From a virus (taxonomy: Duplodnaviria > Heunggongvirae > Uroviricota > Caudoviricetes), in the IMG/VR virus record IMGVR_UViG_648276652_000012: a DNA stretch of 21,453 bases, one strand, 5' to 3'. The notes under the pieces were generated by a model, which saw only the letters and a list, made by a program, of their open reading frames with translations, was not told the DNA's origin and ran no database searches. The position numbers were made by a program, and so were the translations under genes. Below, one piece after another: positions 13,044 through 21,453 of this stretch. Position 1 is the first letter of the stretch. Each line of letters opens with the position of its first letter.

Positions 13044-14501
13044 TTAGGAGCGCCAAAAAAAACCTGAAAACAATATAATAACAGGATAAATTTCAAGGCG
13101 ACCAAGAATCATAGCTATGCACATTAAACATTTTGCAATGTCATTAAGCACTCCGAATGACGATGCAGTAGCCCCAAAACCTAATCCCATATTATTAATA
13201 CATGCAGCCACTGTTGCAAATGATGTAAGAAAATCATATCCCATACCATTTAACACCAGTATAAAAAACACCGTGAAGAGAGTATAAAGAAAAAAGAAAC
13301 TCCATACAGACCTCATTACACGATCTGTAACTATCTTCCCTCCTACATTTACACTCAACAACGCTCTGGGATGAGAAAGCTGATTTATCTCGTGTTTGCT
13401 TTGTTTGAAAAGTATAAGAAATCGAAGTGACTTAATTCCACCACAAGTTGAACCTATACATCCCCCAAAGAAACTTGACAACAGCAAAAACACTATCGTG
13501 TGCGTGGGCCAACTTGCATAATCCTGCGTAGCTAAACCATTATCAGTGAGCATGGAGCTGGCAAGAAAAAACGAATGAATAAAACTTCCATGCAAGTCAT
13601 ACATACCTATATGCCAGACCTGGAAAGAGGTAACAATGATCACCCCTAAGGCTATTAACAGAAAGAAACGAAGTTCAATATCTCTGATTAAAGGTTTTAT
13701 CGTTTTCCTGCTAATAACAATATACCAAAGAGTGAAGTTGAAAGCCGATAGCAGGGAAAAAGAACCAGCCACCAGCTCAACCAAATAGTTATTAAAATAT
13801 CCGATACTCTCGCTATGAGTTGAGAAACCACCAAGCGAAACTGTGGAAATCCCGTGACAAATAGCATCAAACAAAGGCATTCCTGCAAGTCTATAACAGA
13901 CAATACAAGCAATACCTAATAAAGAATAAGTTATCCACAGTGTCCGTGACGTATCGGCCAGGCGGGGAGTGAGTTTGTCATCCTTAAATGGCCCCGGCAT
14001 TTCTGACTGATAAAGCTTTGCACCACCAATACCCAATAATGGCAATACAGCAACCGCCAGAACAATAACTCCTAAACCACCTATAAAATTTAACTGTGAC
14101 CGATAGTACAAATATGCCCGAGGTAATGAACTAACATCATCAATTACAGTTGCTCCTGTTGTTGTTATTCCAGAAACCCCTTCAAACAGAGCATCAATGA
14201 ACGTTAAATTAAGTTCTGAGTCAATCCATAAAGGGAATGCACTAATAACAGAAAACAAAATCCAAAACATTACAATTATAATAAACCCATCACGGGTACG
14301 TAATTGAATGCCAGATTTCTTAGTTGTATACCACGCTCCGCCACCAATGCAAAAAAATATAACGAAAGTTATAAAGAAAACGAACAGGCTTTTTTCTTTA
14401 TAAAACAATGCTACAACCATTGGTGGCAACATTGAAAGACTATAGAGCCAAACCAGGAACCCACACATATGAGTAACAACTCTTACATGAGATGTATTCA
14501 T
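13044..14501 (-). CDS. trkG: Trk-system potassium uptake protein TrkG (TrkH/KtrB family)
   Basis: 485-aa polytopic membrane protein starting MNTSHVRVVTHMCGFLVWLYSL..., recognised from memory as E. coli TrkG. Markedly AT-rich compared with flanking phage genes. Start trimmed from the TTG at 14519 to the ATG at 14501. Confidence 0.9.
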   Translation of the reverse strand: MNTSHVRVVTHMCGFLVWLYSLSMLPPMVVALFYKEKSLFVFFITFVIFFCIGGGAWYTTKKSGIQLRTRDGFIIIVMFWILFSVISAFPLWIDSELNLTFIDALFEGVSGITTTGATVIDDVSSLPRAYLYYRSQLNFIGGLGVIVLAVAVLPLLGIGGAKLYQSEMPGPFKDDKLTPRLADTSRTLWITYSLLGIACIVCYRLAGMPLFDAICHGISTVSLGGFSTHSESIGYFNNYLVELVAGSFSLLSAFNFTLWYIVISRKTIKPLIRDIELRFFLLIALGVIIVTSFQVWHIGMYDLHGSFIHSFFLASSMLTDNGLATQDYASWPTHTIVFLLLSSFFGGCIGSTCGGIKSLRFLILFKQSKHEINQLSHPRALLSVNVGGKIVTDRVMRSVWSFFFLYTLFTVFFILVLNGMGYDFLTSFATVAACINNMGLGFGATASSFGVLNDIAKCLMCIAMILGRLEIYPVIILFSGFFWRS

Positions 14502-15597: not shown

Positions 15598-15812
15598 TAT
15601 TCACCTCTCGCAGCCTTGCGCTTATCTTCTTTAATCTTGAAATAAAGATTTGTCAGATACGTCAGCAGGCCAAATACCAGGCTACCCAGCACACCTATTG
15701 CCGCCCACTGTGAGGGCGTGACTTTATCGAGCAACTGTAAAAACCAGTATCCCGCACTACCCGCGGATGTTCCGTAGGCAATGCCAGTAGAGATTTTGTC
15801 CATTGATTTCAT
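15597..15812 (-). CDS. S: pinholin (phage 21 S-type holin) with dual-start motif
   Basis: 71 aa beginning MKSMDK (Met1 and Met4 starts), two transmembrane segments; GGAGG 7 nt upstream; stop overlaps the R start (TAATG). Confidence 0.9.
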
Positions 15813-15930
15813 AGCAACGCCTCCGCAAGTAACGGATTGCGTAGTTCTTATATTGGGAAGGGGAAAAAAGAAGGCCGCAGCGTAACTATCACTGATGAAT
15901 TCAGGACAGCCAGTGGCTCCGGCTCAGTTA

Positions 15931-16006
15931 TGGTGCTGGTTAACGGACTTGAACCGCTACCCATTCGCTTACAAGGCGACTGCTCTACCATTGGAGCTAA
16001 ACCAGC
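15931..16006 (-). tRNA. tRNA, anticodon UGU by manual fold (tRNA-Thr)
   Basis: Minus-strand 76-nt sequence GCTGGTT-TA-GCTC-CAATGGTA-GAGC-A-GTCGC-CTTGTAA-GCGAA-TGGGT-AGCGG-TTCAAGT-CCGTT-AACCAGC-A-CCA. Perfect 7-bp acceptor and 4-bp D stems, T8/A9, GG in the D-loop, TTCAAGT T-loop, encoded CCA. Anticodon assignment rests on hand folding. Confidence 0.7.
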
Positions 16007-16011
16007 ATATT

Positions 16012-16086
16012 TGGCGGGACAGCGTGGACTCGAACCACGATAAGAAGGTTAACAGCCTTCCGTAATGACCTTTATGCGACTGACCC
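16012..16086 (-). other. degenerate tRNA-like element (possible pseudo-tRNA or unusual tRNA, anticodon GUU if folded)
   Basis: Good T-arm (CGTGG-TTCGAGT-CCACG), perfect anticodon stem (GAAGG/CCTTC, loop CTGTTAA), 3' CCA; but a T-T mismatch in the acceptor stem and a poor D stem. Confidence 0.3.
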
Positions 16087-16087
16087 A

Positions 16088-16125
16088 AACAAAAAAAGCC
16101 ACCGTTGCAACTTAAGAGTCACTAA
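16088..16125 (-). terminator. putative tR'-like terminator downstream of the late promoter
   Basis: Minus strand reads gccgtt...gttgcaacggtggc followed by ttttttt gtttggg; the stem is imperfect but the 7-T run is clear. Confidence 0.4.
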
Positions 16126-16142
16126 CGGCAGCTTACCTTCTA

Positions 16143-16172
16143 ATTATGGCTAAATGGATAATTGCATGTCAA
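16143..16172 (-). promoter_or_regulatory. candidate late promoter pR' (sigma-70; consensus -35, 18-nt spacer, near-consensus -10) overlapping the Q 3' end
   Basis: Minus strand: TTGACA (plus 16167-16172) - 18 nt - CATAAT (plus 16143-16148). The Q stop codon lies between them; the T-run terminator follows about 45 nt downstream. Confidence 0.6.
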
Positions 16173-16668
16173 GGCTTTTAACAGCAACATGCTTAACTTT
16201 CTCAACACGTTTACGCATTTTGAAAGCATTTTGCATTGGCTGGTACAAAACAAATAACGACGCTTTCAGGATGTCGTCAATTTCGTTTCTACAGGTTGCC
16301 AGTGAAGGTTTTCTCCATCCCTCGCCACCACGTCCACACATCTTGCGTGGCTTTGCAGTCGCGTGATAGTAGGATGCAATTGCTCGCTTAGATGAACCAT
16401 GAGCGTAGTAGCTGAGGAGGATGCCAAAGGCTTTTTTGTCAATGCACATGACGGAATCGACGACCTGAGAAATCAACATTCCATCATCATCATTACACAT
16501 TGGCCTTGTCATAACTCTTCCCGGCTCTACGCTCTCCATGAACTTAGCTATTACGCTGCTCATGCGCTTTTCCAGACGACCTGAATAAACCCATGCGCCC
16601 CACAGTTCAAGCCAGCCATTCAGCCACTCGTGCTGTTCTTTGGTGAGGTTTAGTTCTCTTATGCCCAT
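16150..16668 (-). CDS. Q: late antiterminator Q (phage 21/82-type)
   Basis: Motifs ELWGAW, CNDDDGM and LLSYYAHG recalled from Q-family proteins; sits between ninG and the lysis genes. Start set at the ATG at 16668 (GGGAGAAGG upstream) rather than the GTG at 16725, which overlaps ninG. Confidence 0.8.
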   Translation of the reverse strand: MGIRELNLTKEQHEWLNGWLELWGAWVYSGRLEKRMSSVIAKFMESVEPGRVMTRPMCNDDDGMLISQVVDSVMCIDKKAFGILLSYYAHGSSKRAIASYYHATAKPRKMCGRGGEGWRKPSLATCRNEIDDILKASLFVLYQPMQNAFKMRKRVEKVKHVAVKSLDMQLSI

Positions 16669-16711
16669 GCGCCTTCTCCCTTGTGATCTGGAATGGTTTT
16701 TACTGAGAACG

Positions 16712-17323
16712 TCATGCGGCCTCACTTCTGCTGTTTCGCAGGTCTTTGAGTTTCTGCTGATACTCCGCCTTGATGGCCCTGCACTCTTCGACAGTCCAGC
16801 GATGGCGGTTATGGTTTGATTCGATTTCGTCTACTGCTTCCTGCCCGATGCGGCTAATCAGTTCGACGCGATACGGAACGAGATTTCCGCTTTTGTGCTG
16901 GTTGCACACCACGCATTGCTTGTGAATATTGCGTTCATCAAATCGGAGTTGAGGTGCCGCAGCAGTTGTCCGGTAATGTCCGGCATCCCACTGAGCAGAC
17001 GTGAGCGTTCCGCACGAGATACATGGTAAGTCGCGGTCTCTTTCTCTGATGAAGGCGTTTACGGCTTGTTGGGCTTGTTTAATCCAGTAACTGCGGGGCT
17101 TTAAGGCGAGTTTTCGAATCTTAAGTTTATCTTTCTGTTTCTGCTCCTCTCGTCGTCGTTTCTTCTCTGCTGCTTTTTCCGCTTTTTCGCGTTCTTTACT
17201 TCGTCGTTCGAGTGCTATCTTGGTTCCACACTCTGGAGAGCACCACCACTGATTAGCGAATGCAGGATGAAACCATTCCCGACATTCTTCGTTTTTACAT
17301 CGTCTTCGCGCTTGTTTAGCCAT
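16712..17323 (-). CDS. ninG: NinG (Rap) recombination-associated protein
   Basis: 203 aa, [33 protein letters not shown]..., recognised from memory as nearly identical to lambda NinG. Confidence 0.9.
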
Positions 17324-17592
17324 TATGGTTCGCTCCAGTAATTCTCAATTGCAGCAGCCATTCTCTGCATCCACTCAGCCAGCTTTAACGCGGCTTCTCT
17401 TTCAGAACCACATTTAGGGAAATCCTTCATTTCCATGCTGGCCTTATATGTTCTGAATGCTAGGTCTCCGGTAATAACCAGCTCCTGATCAAGCACCGAG
17501 CGTTTATTCCGGTGTTGAACGTAATAGACAGATTCAGTCCGCATTTCTTCTCTGTCTTTTTTGAAGGAAATAAGCTCAGAGAAATCACTCAT
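17323..17592 (-). CDS. hypothetical nin-region protein (89 aa)
   Basis: ORF translationally coupled on both sides: its ATG overlaps the ninF 3' end and its TAA overlaps the ninG ATG (TAATG). Not present in lambda at this position as far as I recall. Confidence 0.55.
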
Positions 17593-17761
17593 CGTCTTCT
17601 TCCTCGTACATTGAGCTATTCGGATCGCTCATCAGTTCTGCGCAGCAATCGGAGCACACGTGAACTTCCAGCACATGCAGCTTCTGACCGCAGTTAGCGC
17701 ACGTTAAAGCCCGCTCGACGCTTTCTTTCTGGTATTGAAGGGATTGGGATGGGCTAAGCAT
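17585..17761 (-). CDS. ninF: NinF
   Basis: Manually translated 58-aa ORF (below the ORF-track cutoff): [58 protein letters not shown]; recognised from memory as lambda NinF-like. Confidence 0.8.
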   Translation of the reverse strand: MLSPSQSLQYQKESVERALTCANCGQKLHVLEVHVCSDCCAELMSDPNSSMYEEEDDE

Positions 17762-18119
17762 TATTGGCGTCCTGCATCATGAGAAAGACAATCATGGCAG
17801 CGCGGAGTGGGTTTTCATCTTGAGTCATATGATATGGGGTACTATCACTGCCAACTTTTCTATGCGCAGCCTTCCATAATCCATTTTCTGGCGCTGGAAT
17901 AATGCCAATTCTGTTCTCTACGATAATCGGCTCTGCGTCTGACGGGCTTTTACAGTAATCAACCGCTTTTATTGCATAACCAGTTTCGTCATCCCACTCA
18001 ACACCAACGATTGATGTTCCCAACTTTGCGATTTCGCAATCTTCGGGAGCAAATCCACAGCAAATTGCCACTCGCTTGTTAATTTCAAAATCACTTAACT
18101 GTGAATAATCCATTGTCAT
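17754..18119 (-). CDS. hypothetical nin-region protein (121 aa)
   Basis: ORF between ninE and ninF; start set at the ATG at 18119, which overlaps the ninE stop (ATGA). Confidence 0.55.
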
Positions 18120-18292
18120 TTCCTCGCACGATGTCTTAGCCACCGGATATCCCACAGGTGAGCCGTGTAGTTGAAGGTTTTTACGTCAGATTCTTTTGGG
18201 ATTGGCTTGCGTTTATTTCTGGAGCGTTTCGTTGGAAGGTATTTGCAGTTTTCGCAGATGATGTCGGTGAAACTTCGTCGCTGTCGCCTCAT
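18116..18292 (-). CDS. ninE: NinE
   Basis: 58 aa, [58 protein letters not shown]; recognised from memory as lambda NinE-like. ATG overlaps the methylase stop (ATGA). Confidence 0.85.
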
Positions 18293-18816
18293 GCCGCCCT
18301 CCTGACGCCCTGCCCGATCGCTATCAATGCCGCTTTGGATACGGTAGTAAACATCCGTCGAGGACTGATGAACGGTCGCCAAATCAGCAGCATGGAGCCT
18401 TTGCTGTTTCCCTTCTTCTCCAGCCCCGTCGATGGTTCGATAAAATTAATCCGTCCATCAGTGATAATGCGAACTTCGTCGACACTCTCCAGAGCCTTGC
18501 TGAACCATCCGACTGACATATCCTCTGGCACAAGCATCACTACCGTCTGTCGCTGTTGTATGCACTGCTCAGCGGCTTTTTCCACCCACGGCCTGATATT
18601 GCTGTACGGTGGGTTATTCCAGATTGCACCGTGGCTTACCCACTCAGAATTGAGCGCGTCGTCGGCCTCAGTTAGCCAGTGAGCACACAGAGCATTTTTG
18701 TCGCTCGCTGCCGAATCCAGCCAGAATCCAAACTCAATATCCAGTGCATCAAAAAGCCAAAGCGGCGTTTGCCAGCAGTCCTTGTCGTGTGCTGGCGTAT
18801 TTGATTTGATAGTCAT
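18289..18816 (-). CDS. phage-type DNA N6-adenine methyltransferase (Dam-like)
   Basis: 175 aa with DKDCWQTP near the N-terminus and the NPPY catalytic motif; ATG at 18816 overlaps the ninB stop (ATGA). Occupies the slot where lambda has ninC/ninD. Confidence 0.8.
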
Positions 18817-19253
18817 GCAGCCCGATCTCCCCATCTCGCTTTCCACTCCAGAGCCAGTCTCGCTTCGTCTGACCACTTAACGCCACGCTCTGTACCGAAT
18901 GCCTGTATAAGCTCTAATAGCTCCGCAAATTCGCCTACACGCATCCTGCTGGTTGACTGGCCTATTACCACAAAGCCATTCCCGGCAAGGTTAGGAACAA
19001 CATCCTGCTGCTTTAATGCTGCGGTAAACACACACTTCCAGCTTTCTGCATCCAGCCAGCGACCATGCCATTCAACCTGACGAGAGACGTCACCTAAGCA
19101 GGCCCATAGCTTCCTGTTTTGGTCTAAGCTGCGGTTGCGTTCCTGAATGGTTACTACGATTGGTTTGGTTGGGTCTGGAAGGATTTGCTGTACTGCGTGA
19201 ATAGCGTTTTGCTGATGTGCTGGAGATCGAATTTCAAAGGTTAGTTTTTTCAT
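18813..19253 (-). CDS. ninB: NinB (Orf) recombination protein
   Basis: 146 aa, MKKLTFEIRSPAHQQNAIHAVQQILPDPTKPIVVTIQERNRSLDQNRKLWACLGDVSRQVEWHGRW...; recognised from memory as lambda NinB. Confidence 0.9.
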   Translation of the reverse strand: MKKLTFEIRSPAHQQNAIHAVQQILPDPTKPIVVTIQERNRSLDQNRKLWACLGDVSRQVEWHGRWLDAESWKCVFTAALKQQDVVPNLAGNGFVVIGQSTSRMRVGEFAELLELIQAFGTERGVKWSDEARLALEWKARWGDRAA

Positions 19254-19267
19254 GACTTCCCTCTCCC

Positions 19268-19301
19268 CCAAATAAAAAGGCCTGCGATTACTAGCAGGCC
19301 T
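19268..19301 (-). terminator. tR2-like rho-independent terminator between ren and ninB
   Basis: Minus strand: AGGCCTGC-tagtaatc-GCAGGCCT (perfect 8-bp stem) followed by ttttatttggg; same position as lambda tR2. Confidence 0.7.
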
Positions 19302-19326
19302 GTTATTAGCTCAGTAATGTAGATGG

Positions 19327-19617
19327 TCATCTTTTAACTCCATATACCGCCAATACCCGTTTCATCGCGGCACTCTGGCGACACTCCTTAAAAATCAGGT
19401 TCGTGCTCATCTTTCCTTCCCGTTCTTCCCTGGTAGCAAACCGGTAATACACCGTTCGCCAGACCTTACCTTCGATAACCAGAAGACCTGCCCGTGCCAT
19501 TTTAGCCGCAGCCTGATTTATGCTGGTTACTGTTGCGCCTGTTACCGCGGCAACGTCCTGCGCACAGAAGCTCTTATGCGTCCCCAGGTAATAAATAATT
19601 GCCTCTTTGCCCGTCAT
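19327..19617 (-). CDS. ren: Ren protein
   Basis: 96 aa, MTGKEAIIYYLGTHKSFCAQDVAAVTGATVTSINQAAAKMARAGLLVIEGKVWRTVYYRFATREEREGK...; recognised from memory as lambda Ren. Start overlaps the P stop (ATGA). Confidence 0.9.
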   Translation of the reverse strand: MTGKEAIIYYLGTHKSFCAQDVAAVTGATVTSINQAAAKMARAGLLVIEGKVWRTVYYRFATREEREGKMSTNLIFKECRQSAAMKRVLAVYGVKR

Positions 19618-20315
19618 ACACTTGCTCCTTTCAGCCCAAACTTAGCTTTGATTTCTGCGATCTTCGCCAGAGCCTGTGCACGATTTAGAGGTCTACCGCC
19701 CATGACAGGAAGTTGTTTTACTGGTTCAGGGATCGCCTCACCACGGTTAATTCTCGCAGTCATATGGACAAGCTCATCTGCGGCCTTACGGCGTAATTCC
19801 GCATCAGTAAGCGCATTGGCCCTCATGTTCTGATACAGGTTGGTAACCAGCCAGTAGTGCGCGTTTGATTTCCACGGATAAGACTCCGCATCCGGATACA
19901 GGCCTCGCTTCCGGCAATACTCGTAAACCATATCAACCAGCTCGCTGACGTTTGGTAGTCCGGCGATAACGGATGCTTCTTCCCGGCACCATGCAACAAA
20001 CTGCCCGGGTGATGGCAGAAATGGTCGATTCTGCCGACGGGCTACGCGCATTCCTGCGTTAACCTGTTCCATTGTGGTGATCCCGTTTTCCCGGAAAGCC
20101 AGCACCCACTGGCGGCGGATTTCGTTCAGTTCGTTCTGGTCACGGTTAGCCAGGCTCGCCGGGAAAGTTGCCAGTAACTGGCTGAACACACCGTTGATGA
20201 TCTGCGCTACCTGCTGTACCTGCGGCTTTTCGTCGTACTGTTCCGGCATGTTGTTGGCGATCCGACGCATCTGCTCACGGTCAAAGTTAACCATCTGTGC
20301 GGCGATGTTTTTCAT
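19614..20315 (-). CDS. P: replication protein P (DnaB helicase loader)
   Basis: 233 aa, MKNIAAQMVNFDREQMRRIANNMPEQYDEKPQVQQVAQIINGVFSQLLATFPASLANRDQNELNEIRRQW...; recognised from memory as lambda P. Start overlaps the O stop (ATGA). Confidence 0.95.
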   Translation of the reverse strand: MKNIAAQMVNFDREQMRRIANNMPEQYDEKPQVQQVAQIINGVFSQLLATFPASLANRDQNELNEIRRQWVLAFRENGITTMEQVNAGMRVARRQNRPFLPSPGQFVAWCREEASVIAGLPNVSELVDMVYEYCRKRGLYPDAESYPWKSNAHYWLVTNLYQNMRANALTDAELRRKAADELVHMTARINRGEAIPEPVKQLPVMGGRPLNRAQALAKIAEIKAKFGLKGASV

Positions 20316-21211
20316 AGATCCACCCCGTAAATCCAGTCTGTGTTTGTCAGGTCGAGTTTTGGTTTGCTGGCTGTCACGACTGCCTGTTGCTTGTTACGGT
20401 TGATTTCGAGCTGGGTCCACTTGTCGCGGAGTTTGGCCGGACTCAGCACGTTACCGGACCAGAAGTTGTCCTGGCAGGCCCAGCGGAACAGCACGCACAT
20501 GTCGCGGTGGTTACGTCCGTCACGTTCACGCATCAGGCGGATATCGTTAGCCCACCCTGCAAAATTCGGTTTTCTGGCTGATGGCGCGATGGTCTTCACC
20601 ATGTCAAACATCCACTCTGCGGCGGTCAGGTCTTCTGCTGTCCCCCACTTGCTGCCGCTCTGAATTGCAGCATCCGGTTTAACCACAGAAAGATCGTTTT
20701 CTGGCTGGTCAGAGGATTCGCCAGAATTCTCGGACGAATAATCTTTTCTTTTTTCTTTTGTAATAGTGTCTTTTGTGTCCCCCTGTTTTGAGGGATAGTA
20801 ATCCCCCAATTTGAGGGATGTTTTATCCCTCGTTTTAGGGGATTTTCCCTCGTTTTGAGGGATACACCATTCTGAGATGTTTTTATTTGGTCCAAACATG
20901 CCGCCTTGCTGCTTGATAATATTCATTCTGACGAGTTCTAACTTGGCTTCATTGCACCGTTTGACAGGTAACTTTGTAATCTCGCTAAGTTGAGAATCGG
21001 TGATTCTGTCCATTGGTTTATTCCACCCATAGGTTTTACGCAGAATGGCAAGCAGCACTTTAAACTGTCGCTTGGTCAGATCTGCGCCCGAATAAGCCTC
21101 AAGCAGCATATTTGATAGTCTGGCGTAACCATCATCGAGATCTGCCACATTACGCTCCTGTCCGGCAAAGTTACCTCTGCCGAAGTTGAGTATTTTTGCT
21201 GTATTTGTCAT
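20312..21211 (-). CDS. O: replication initiator protein O
   Basis: 299 aa, MTNTAKILNFGRGNFAGQERNVADLDDGYARLSNMLLEAYSGADLTKRQFKVLLAILRKTYGWNKP...; recognised from memory as lambda O; iteron repeats lie inside the coding sequence. Confidence 0.95.
   Translation of the reverse strand: MTNTAKILNFGRGNFAGQERNVADLDDGYARLSNMLLEAYSGADLTKRQFKVLLAILRKTYGWNKPMDRITDSQLSEITKLPVKRCNEAKLELVRMNIIKQQGGMFGPNKNISEWCIPQNEGKSPKTRDKTSLKLGDYYPSKQGDTKDTITKEKRKDYSSENSGESSDQPENDLSVVKPDAAIQSGSKWGTAEDLTAAEWMFDMVKTIAPSARKPNFAGWANDIRLMRERDGRNHRDMCVLFRWACQDNFWSGNVLSPAKLRDKWTQLEINRNKQQAVVTASKPKLDLTNTDWIYGVDL
20735..20864. other. lambda-type replication origin: four iterons plus adjacent AT-rich region, inside the O gene
   Basis: Four 18-19 bp iterons, each itself an inverted repeat (atccctc...gagggat), at about 20778-20796, 20801-20819, 20825-20843 and 20847-20864; A/T-rich tract at 20735-20777. 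Confidence 0.85.
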
Positions 21212-21213
21212 AA

Positions 21214-21453
21214 TGAACCGCCCCGGGTTTCCTGGAGAGTGTTTTATCTGTGAACTCAGGCTGCCAGATCATCGTTTCCGATGGAAGCATAATAAGCTTT
21301 TTCTGCTTCTGCCGGTGGGATATGGCCCAGCCTTTCCAGCAATCGTCGATTGTTATACCAGTCCACCCACGTGAGTGTGGCCAGCTCCACTTCTGTCCGG
21401 TTTTTCCAGCTCTTACGGTGTATTACCTCCGCTTTGTAAAGGCCATTGATGCT
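21214..21453 (-). mobile_element. IS3-family insertion sequence, one end (element continues right of the window)
   Basis: Terminus begins TGAACCGCC... at 21214, 2 bp from the O start codon; contains the transposase 3' end. The exact boundary is inferred. Confidence 0.7.
21256..21453 (-). CDS. IS3-family transposase OrfB C-terminal fragment
   Basis: Minus-strand translation ...SINGLYKAEVIHRKSWKNRTEVELATLTWVDWYNNRRLLERLGHIPPAEAEKAYYASIGNDDLAA with stop at 21258-21256; typical DDE-transposase C-terminus of the IS3 family. Confidence 0.8.
   Translation of the reverse strand, partial: SINGLYKAEVIHRKSWKNRTEVELATLTWVDWYNNRRLLERLGHIPPAEAEKAYYASIGNDDLAA

Follow-up and report, generated by a model that had tools for sequence, protein, structure and literature searches.

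An IS629-type element abuts the replication gene O of a lambda-like prophage and parts the pO promoter from oop

The window, which is the whole stretch of DNA analysed here, corresponds to contig ADWU01000056.1 (draft assembly GCA_000179155.1) over its full length of 21,453 bp. It carries genes of a lambda-like prophage that follow one another on the minus strand in the order O, P, ren, nin genes, Q, lysis genes, and morphogenesis genes (Table 1). The parts of a lambda-type replication module are all present, namely the O initiator, the P helicase loader, and iterons within O. Within the query, the opening 317 nt (positions 20900-21216) match the 5' region of phage lambda O at 100%, and the Megablast identity reaches 21216. 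However, cII and the native AGGAG leader do not lie directly upstream of O; from position -3 upward their place is taken by the end of an IS629-type element. Identical O proteins are widespread, and the related loci that encode them all carry cII 32 nt upstream. Likewise, the exact O, NinB, and Q proteins occur as common alleles only, each with an intact cII-O arrangement.

Table 1 Features around the start of O, in window coordinates
Feature	Position	Strand	Basis or remark
O, lambda-type replication initiator, intact, 299 aa (ATG 21211-21209)	20312..21211	minus	PF04492, E = 5.6e-36
P, replication gene, intact, 233 aa, downstream of O in the same operon	19614..20315	minus	PF06992, E = 5.4e-62
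ren	19617-19327	minus	Early-right operon, after O and P
Four ori-lambda-type iterons inside O	20778..20862		Read directly from the sequence
IS629-type IS3-family element, right-hand 240 bp	21214..21453	minus (transposase sense, same direction as O)	Identity to L030; runs off the contig end
Right terminal inverted repeat (IRR), ending ...GGTTCA at 21214	21214..21238	minus	23/25 positions match the left repeat of the full copy
Transposase orfB, 3' end, 65 codons (stop 21258-21256)	21259..21453	minus	Pfam rve_3, rve_2
TTA, predicted 3-bp target site: two remaining native bases and the A of the O start codon	21211..21213	minus	Inferred from duplications at reference copies
GGGGCGG tract within the IRR, possible surrogate Shine-Dalgarno	21218..21224	minus	6 nt upstream of the O ATG (-13 to -7), GGxGG-type
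pO promoter (oop RNA): -35 TTGAGT 21186-21191, 17-nt spacer, -10 CATAAT 21209-21214	21186..21214	plus	Sole promoter-like match in the region

E. coli 300709 (L030) has a complete IS3-family element of 1310 bp, whose right end matches the last 240 bp of the window (TGAACCGCCCCGGGTTTCCTGGAGAGTG... on the plus strand) at 240/240 positions. That full copy begins with TGAACCGCCCCGGGAATCC and terminates in GGGGCGGTTCA. Identity to three copies labelled IS1203 by PGAP in strain 23CRST009 (L013) is about 96% (95-96%). The terminal sequence of the window element, TGAACCGCCCCGGGTTTCCTGGAGA, is the right end of both the full 1310-bp copy and the three IS1203 copies, and it belongs to a terminal repeat with TG...CA ends. 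We take the element to be IS629, a common insertion sequence of E. coli, from the ends of the full copy and from the PGAP labels of its IS1203 relatives. The 65-residue C-terminal fragment of OrfB carries a DDE integrase core, scoring 30.5 bits against rve_3 (cut-off 26.5) and 30.9 bits against rve_2 (cut-off 22). All four complete reference copies (4/4) terminate precisely in ...GGTTCA, each flanked by 3-bp target duplications. This shared terminal base confirms 21214 as the boundary, and the preliminary description, which had an IS3-family element ending 2 bp before the O ATG, was correct to the base. IS629 has been described as a 1310-bp element with orfA and orfB, TG...CA ends, and a target duplication of 3-4 bp; it favours prophage DNA, where 62% of its copies lie, and has no defined hot spot (PMC3271280).

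Just upstream of O, the minus strand of the window reads ...CCAGGAAACCCGGGGCGGTTCA-TT-ATG. The leader of phage lambda is ...tatcaacAGGAGtcattATGacaaat, and a second locus, L026, can be compared with it. L026, a Logan assembly of SRR16118458, came to light together with L027 through the rare NinX allele of the window, which is found in 3 contigs of the whole collection. It matches the window at 100.000% over 5,497 bp, from 15720 to 21216, and then continues into an intact cII-O spacer, ...caacAGGAGTCATTATG. Lambda and L026 both read ...AGGAGTCATT-ATG before O. Compared with these two, the native leader ...caacAGGAGTCATT-ATG has become ...cccGGGGCGGTTCATT-ATG in the window, and the native AGGAG Shine-Dalgarno is lost at the junction. 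Two native bases (TT) are left before the ATG by the boundary of the element, whereas five (TCATT) are unchanged by sequence identity, because the terminal TCA of the element coincides with a native TCA. L026 is the empty site of the insertion. The N protein, two ORFs in the rex position, and the cI, cro, and cII proteins of L026 are all common. The perfect identity to the empty-site allele, together with the intactness of every window gene, suggests a recent, strain-specific event.

L027, a Logan assembly of SRR088908, begins 31 nt inside the element and has the junction exactly as in the window. This bears on whether the junction is an assembly artefact, in which a read from the element was chimerically joined to O. 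The contig ends in repeats on both sides, where draft assemblies can mis-join. However, the join sits exactly at the canonical terminus of the element and is reproduced in L027, which is a separate assembly, not separate data, if SRR088908 holds reads of the same strain, as it may. We therefore give an artefact hardly any credence.

The junction is rare. In a Megablast search of 5,426 complete E. coli genomes, no genome (0/5,426) contains the element-O junction in one piece, every full-coverage match consisting of two separate pieces. Scans for the exact junction detected none in the species-representative genomes and none in the JGI metagenome contigs. A junction-specific partial product, O preceded by 10 codons derived from the element, occurs in one run only, SRR088908. 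The best match of another search was rejected, its element lying on the other side of ren.

Related arrangements are found farther upstream. IS629-type right ends that face O occur in 31 complete E. coli genomes (L031, 4155-5678, and L032, 4692-5905, are among the loci) and fall into four spacing classes, about 298, 454, 525, and 630 bp upstream of O. The search registered elements in this orientation only and hence gives no measure of orientation bias. In strain Z1323CEC0013, an IS629-type element separates cro from cII, and cro and cI are present on its far side. In E. coli E2865 and about 20 related strains (the 549-bp class), the element abuts cII, a truncated sieB lies on its far side, and cro, cI, and N are missing; the PGAP-called cII ORF of this class overlaps the end of the element. 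These loci resemble the window in that the right end faces O, in the same orientation, 298-630 bp upstream. They differ in that the element lies in or upstream of cII, so that the O leader, its Shine-Dalgarno, and the pO-oop unit are intact, and in that one class has lost cro, cI, and N. The window also resembles the IS629 insertions in lambdoid prophages of E. coli O157:H7 and its relatives in the type of element and in the preference for prophages (PMC3271280); it differs from them in that its site is 2 nt before O, in the start region of pO and oop, and is found in one strain only. The insertion is of a well-known kind and an ordinary step in prophage decay.

We put at about 0.7 the probability that a 1310-bp IS629-type element transposed recently, in one strain, into the spacer between cII and O of a lambda-like prophage, pointing the same way as O and probably at TTA (-2 to +1), impairing the expression of O and of the pR/pO/oop region. 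The TTA target is predicted from the 3-bp duplications at the four reference copies, the window containing one flank only. A simple insertion would place cII next to the left end of the element, with the TTA duplicated. The far junction would then run ...AGGAGTCATTA/TGAACCGCC, that is, ...GGAGTCATTA joined to the left end that opens the full copy, giving GGAGTCATTATGAACCGCCCCGGGAATCC. If the insertion is simple, the duplicated TTA and the terminal TG of the element also recreate an ATG behind the orphaned native AGGAG, and this ATG opens a mini-ORF of 9 codons (MNRPGNPGD) in the left end of the element.

The far side could instead be the product of an IS-associated deletion or rearrangement, in which an older IS629 in cII, cro, or N had its right end joined to the TTA, with the immunity region deleted or relocated and O-P-nin-Q left without pR. 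E2865 and its roughly 20 companion strains, described above, provide a precedent, and literature cited within PMC3271280 describes IS629-linked deletions in EHEC. The window is silent on the far side of the element: it begins with 252 bp of IS2 and finishes with 240 bp of IS629, both of them collapsed repeats, so the flanks are unassembled rather than absent. On the other hand, Z1323CEC0013, with cro and cI beyond the element, is a precedent of the opposite kind, the start of the flank fits an ordinary 3-bp target, and the absence of any mismatch to the empty-site allele speaks for one recent event. A rearrangement is thus an unlikely alternative that nevertheless deserves some weight, and the simple transposition remains our preferred reading.

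The insertion also affects a promoter on the opposite strand. In lambda, a mutation in the -10 element of pO lies 2 bp from the first O codon (PMC3985674). The -10 element has been given as ATTAT, with position -19 at 38694 (PMC3349717), which puts oop +1 at 38675, 11 nt upstream of the O ATG. In the window, the pO hexamers overlap the start of O at a position that agrees with both reports. The -10 hexamer takes its final T from the first base of the element, and the element thus lies precisely between this hexamer and the start of oop. The 77-nt oop body and the tO terminator do not follow pO directly; IS629 sequence does, and the discriminator of pO is now GC-rich and derived from the element. 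In the empty-site allele L026, an evident homologue of oop is present, together with a terminator hairpin and a U-run. Accordingly, oop and tO are detached from pO, which now faces the IS629 element, antisense to orfB. On the reading of the junction, oop and tO have been moved to the far side of the element or lost in the strain of the window. This pO-oop split is a consequence that the preliminary description did not contain.

In lambda, oop antagonises and down-regulates cII (PMC3349717), and the activity of pO tunes pR read-through and replication initiation (PMC3985674). With these roles, the regulatory damage extends past the ribosome-binding site of O, and the tuning of cII and of replication initiation by pR, pO, and oop would be broken. 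The locus can be likened to lambda pO-minus and oop mutants in that pO-driven oop transcription is lost. It differs from them in that the promoter hexamers are kept, only the oop body being displaced, and in that pO is redirected into the element.

Transcription of O is altered as well. The preliminary description had stated that O, P, and the nin/Q genes are cut off from pR, cro, and cII. Comparison with lambda and L026 bears this out, in that the adjacency is lost and pR-cro-cII is displaced by the element. The pR-cro-nutR-cII segment would now lie at least 1.3 kb from O, if it is still attached at all. The description had also allowed for an outward promoter within the element; a consensus scan of the element end and the full copy for sigma-70-like outward promoters on the O-sense strand found none. 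A hybrid outward promoter across the junction (TTCATT, 17-nt spacer, AATACT) was considered and rejected, as it matches at 7/12 positions by eye and its start would fall inside O. The element and O share their orientation, and a scan for terminator-like sites on the O-sense strand found none in either the element end or the full copy. Therefore, N-antiterminated pR transcripts or read-through from the transposase could still reach O. Transcription of O-P-nin-Q would thus hang on read-through of the element, either from pR with N antitermination or from a weak transposase promoter.

It is established lambda genetics that N-modified, antiterminated polymerase overrides the polarity of insertion sequences. 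The classical polar insertions in the cII/y region of the lambda pR operon, r32 (IS2) and r14 (IS1), are suppressed by N. As in r32 and r14, the element of the window lies between pR and the replication genes, where such insertions lower O and P and N-modified polymerase reads through them. In contrast to the window, r32 and r14 are laboratory isolates, involve other types of insertion sequence, and do not remove the ribosome-binding site of O. A literature search on lambda r32/IS2 found nothing.

Translation of O is likewise changed by the junction. The preliminary description had left O with no Shine-Dalgarno. The native AGGAG is indeed gone, but the claim was too strong, since the end of the element brings in GGGGCGG, whose predicted pairing is about as strong. 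In RNAduplex calculations with the 3' tail of 16S rRNA, GGGGCGG reaches -7.0 kcal/mol, compared with -6.9 kcal/mol for the native AGGAG. The pairing of GGGGCGG contains one mismatch and two G-U pairs. The region is also somewhat more base-paired than the native one, with a mean unpaired probability of 0.40 versus 0.51, and the G tract lies partly in a local hairpin. What the sequence supports is therefore the apparent replacement of the native Shine-Dalgarno by a weaker-looking surrogate. Translation of O would be lowered but not necessarily abolished, as the GGGGCGG of the element can pair with the anti-Shine-Dalgarno. Production of O as a fusion to OrfB is ruled out; the frames differ, there is a stop in the O frame 19 codons upstream, and no alternative start codon is available.

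With predicted pairing as strong as at the native site, efficient translation of O may persist, and replication may hardly be affected by the insertion. A reading along these lines takes the insertion as near-neutral or as a re-wiring, in which O is still transcribed through the element and translated from GGGGCGG, and the module works without oop control while pO makes antisense RNA on the transposase. The acceptable spacing and the pairing energy of GGGGCGG fit this reading, as do the shared direction of the element and O, the O-sense strand free of terminator-like sites, and the intact O, P, and origin. The mismatch and G-U pairs, the partial sequestration of the G tract in a hairpin, and the lack of a consensus promoter in the element count against it. 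In addition, untranslated stretches of an insertion sequence usually bring Rho-dependent polarity. We thus consider a near-neutral insertion rather improbable. A further step, which we regard as very improbable, is a reciprocal capture, in which read-through from IS629 and the surrogate ribosome-binding site provide low, repressor-independent expression of O and P, while the antisense RNA from pO damps transposition. If true, it would amount to a small mutual regulatory capture between prophage and insertion sequence.

On the preferred reading, a single 1.3-kb insertion at once removes a ribosome-binding site, distances the early promoter, and splits a promoter from its antisense RNA. The preliminary description is thus partly supported; its structural claim was right, and its functional claim is plausible but was overstated on the Shine-Dalgarno. 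The locus records, at base level, a further route by which resident prophages are disabled or deregulated by insertion sequences, with little import beyond annotation.

The other end of the window also bears on the state of the prophage. The right end of IS2 (…GGGGCAAATCCA) stops at 252. Read as their reverse complement, positions 253-266 give ATGGCAGAGCAAAC, the 14 nt with which the tape-measure gene begins in an intact relative in ETEC H10407. This gene is therefore broken by IS2 after nt 14 (codon 4), and the contig does not include the remaining tail region. The prophage had been called crippled on account of insertion sequences at both ends. The IS2 in the tape-measure gene supports this, but the presence of insertion sequences at both ends is mainly an effect of assembly. 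As a caution for genome scans, such a pattern can simply mean that a draft contig is broken in repeats, and need not mark prophage boundaries. The IS2 in the tape-measure gene is a genuine second lesion and supports the word crippled as far as particle production is concerned. The IS629 element before O and the IS2 in the tape-measure gene would together mark a prophage that is being disabled by insertion sequences. Counting against impairment, O, P, ren, and all other genes of the window are intact, with no sign of long-term decay.

An Rfam scan of the window detected two tRNAs and nothing else. These genes, Thr-TGT and Asn-GTT, lie at 15931-16086 on the minus strand, between the Q antiterminator gene and the holin gene. 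Relatives of the prophage are located beside ybhC, at the lambda attachment site, and carry trkG between the lysis and packaging genes. In the 23CRST009 relative, copies of IS2, IS3, and IS1203 abound at other sites. In the window, trkG, a Rac-like cargo gene (13044-14501, minus strand), encodes a host-type potassium transporter of 485 aa. It has the lysis cassette on one side and a ParB-like gene on the other, a placement shared with the relatives in H10407 and 23CRST009.
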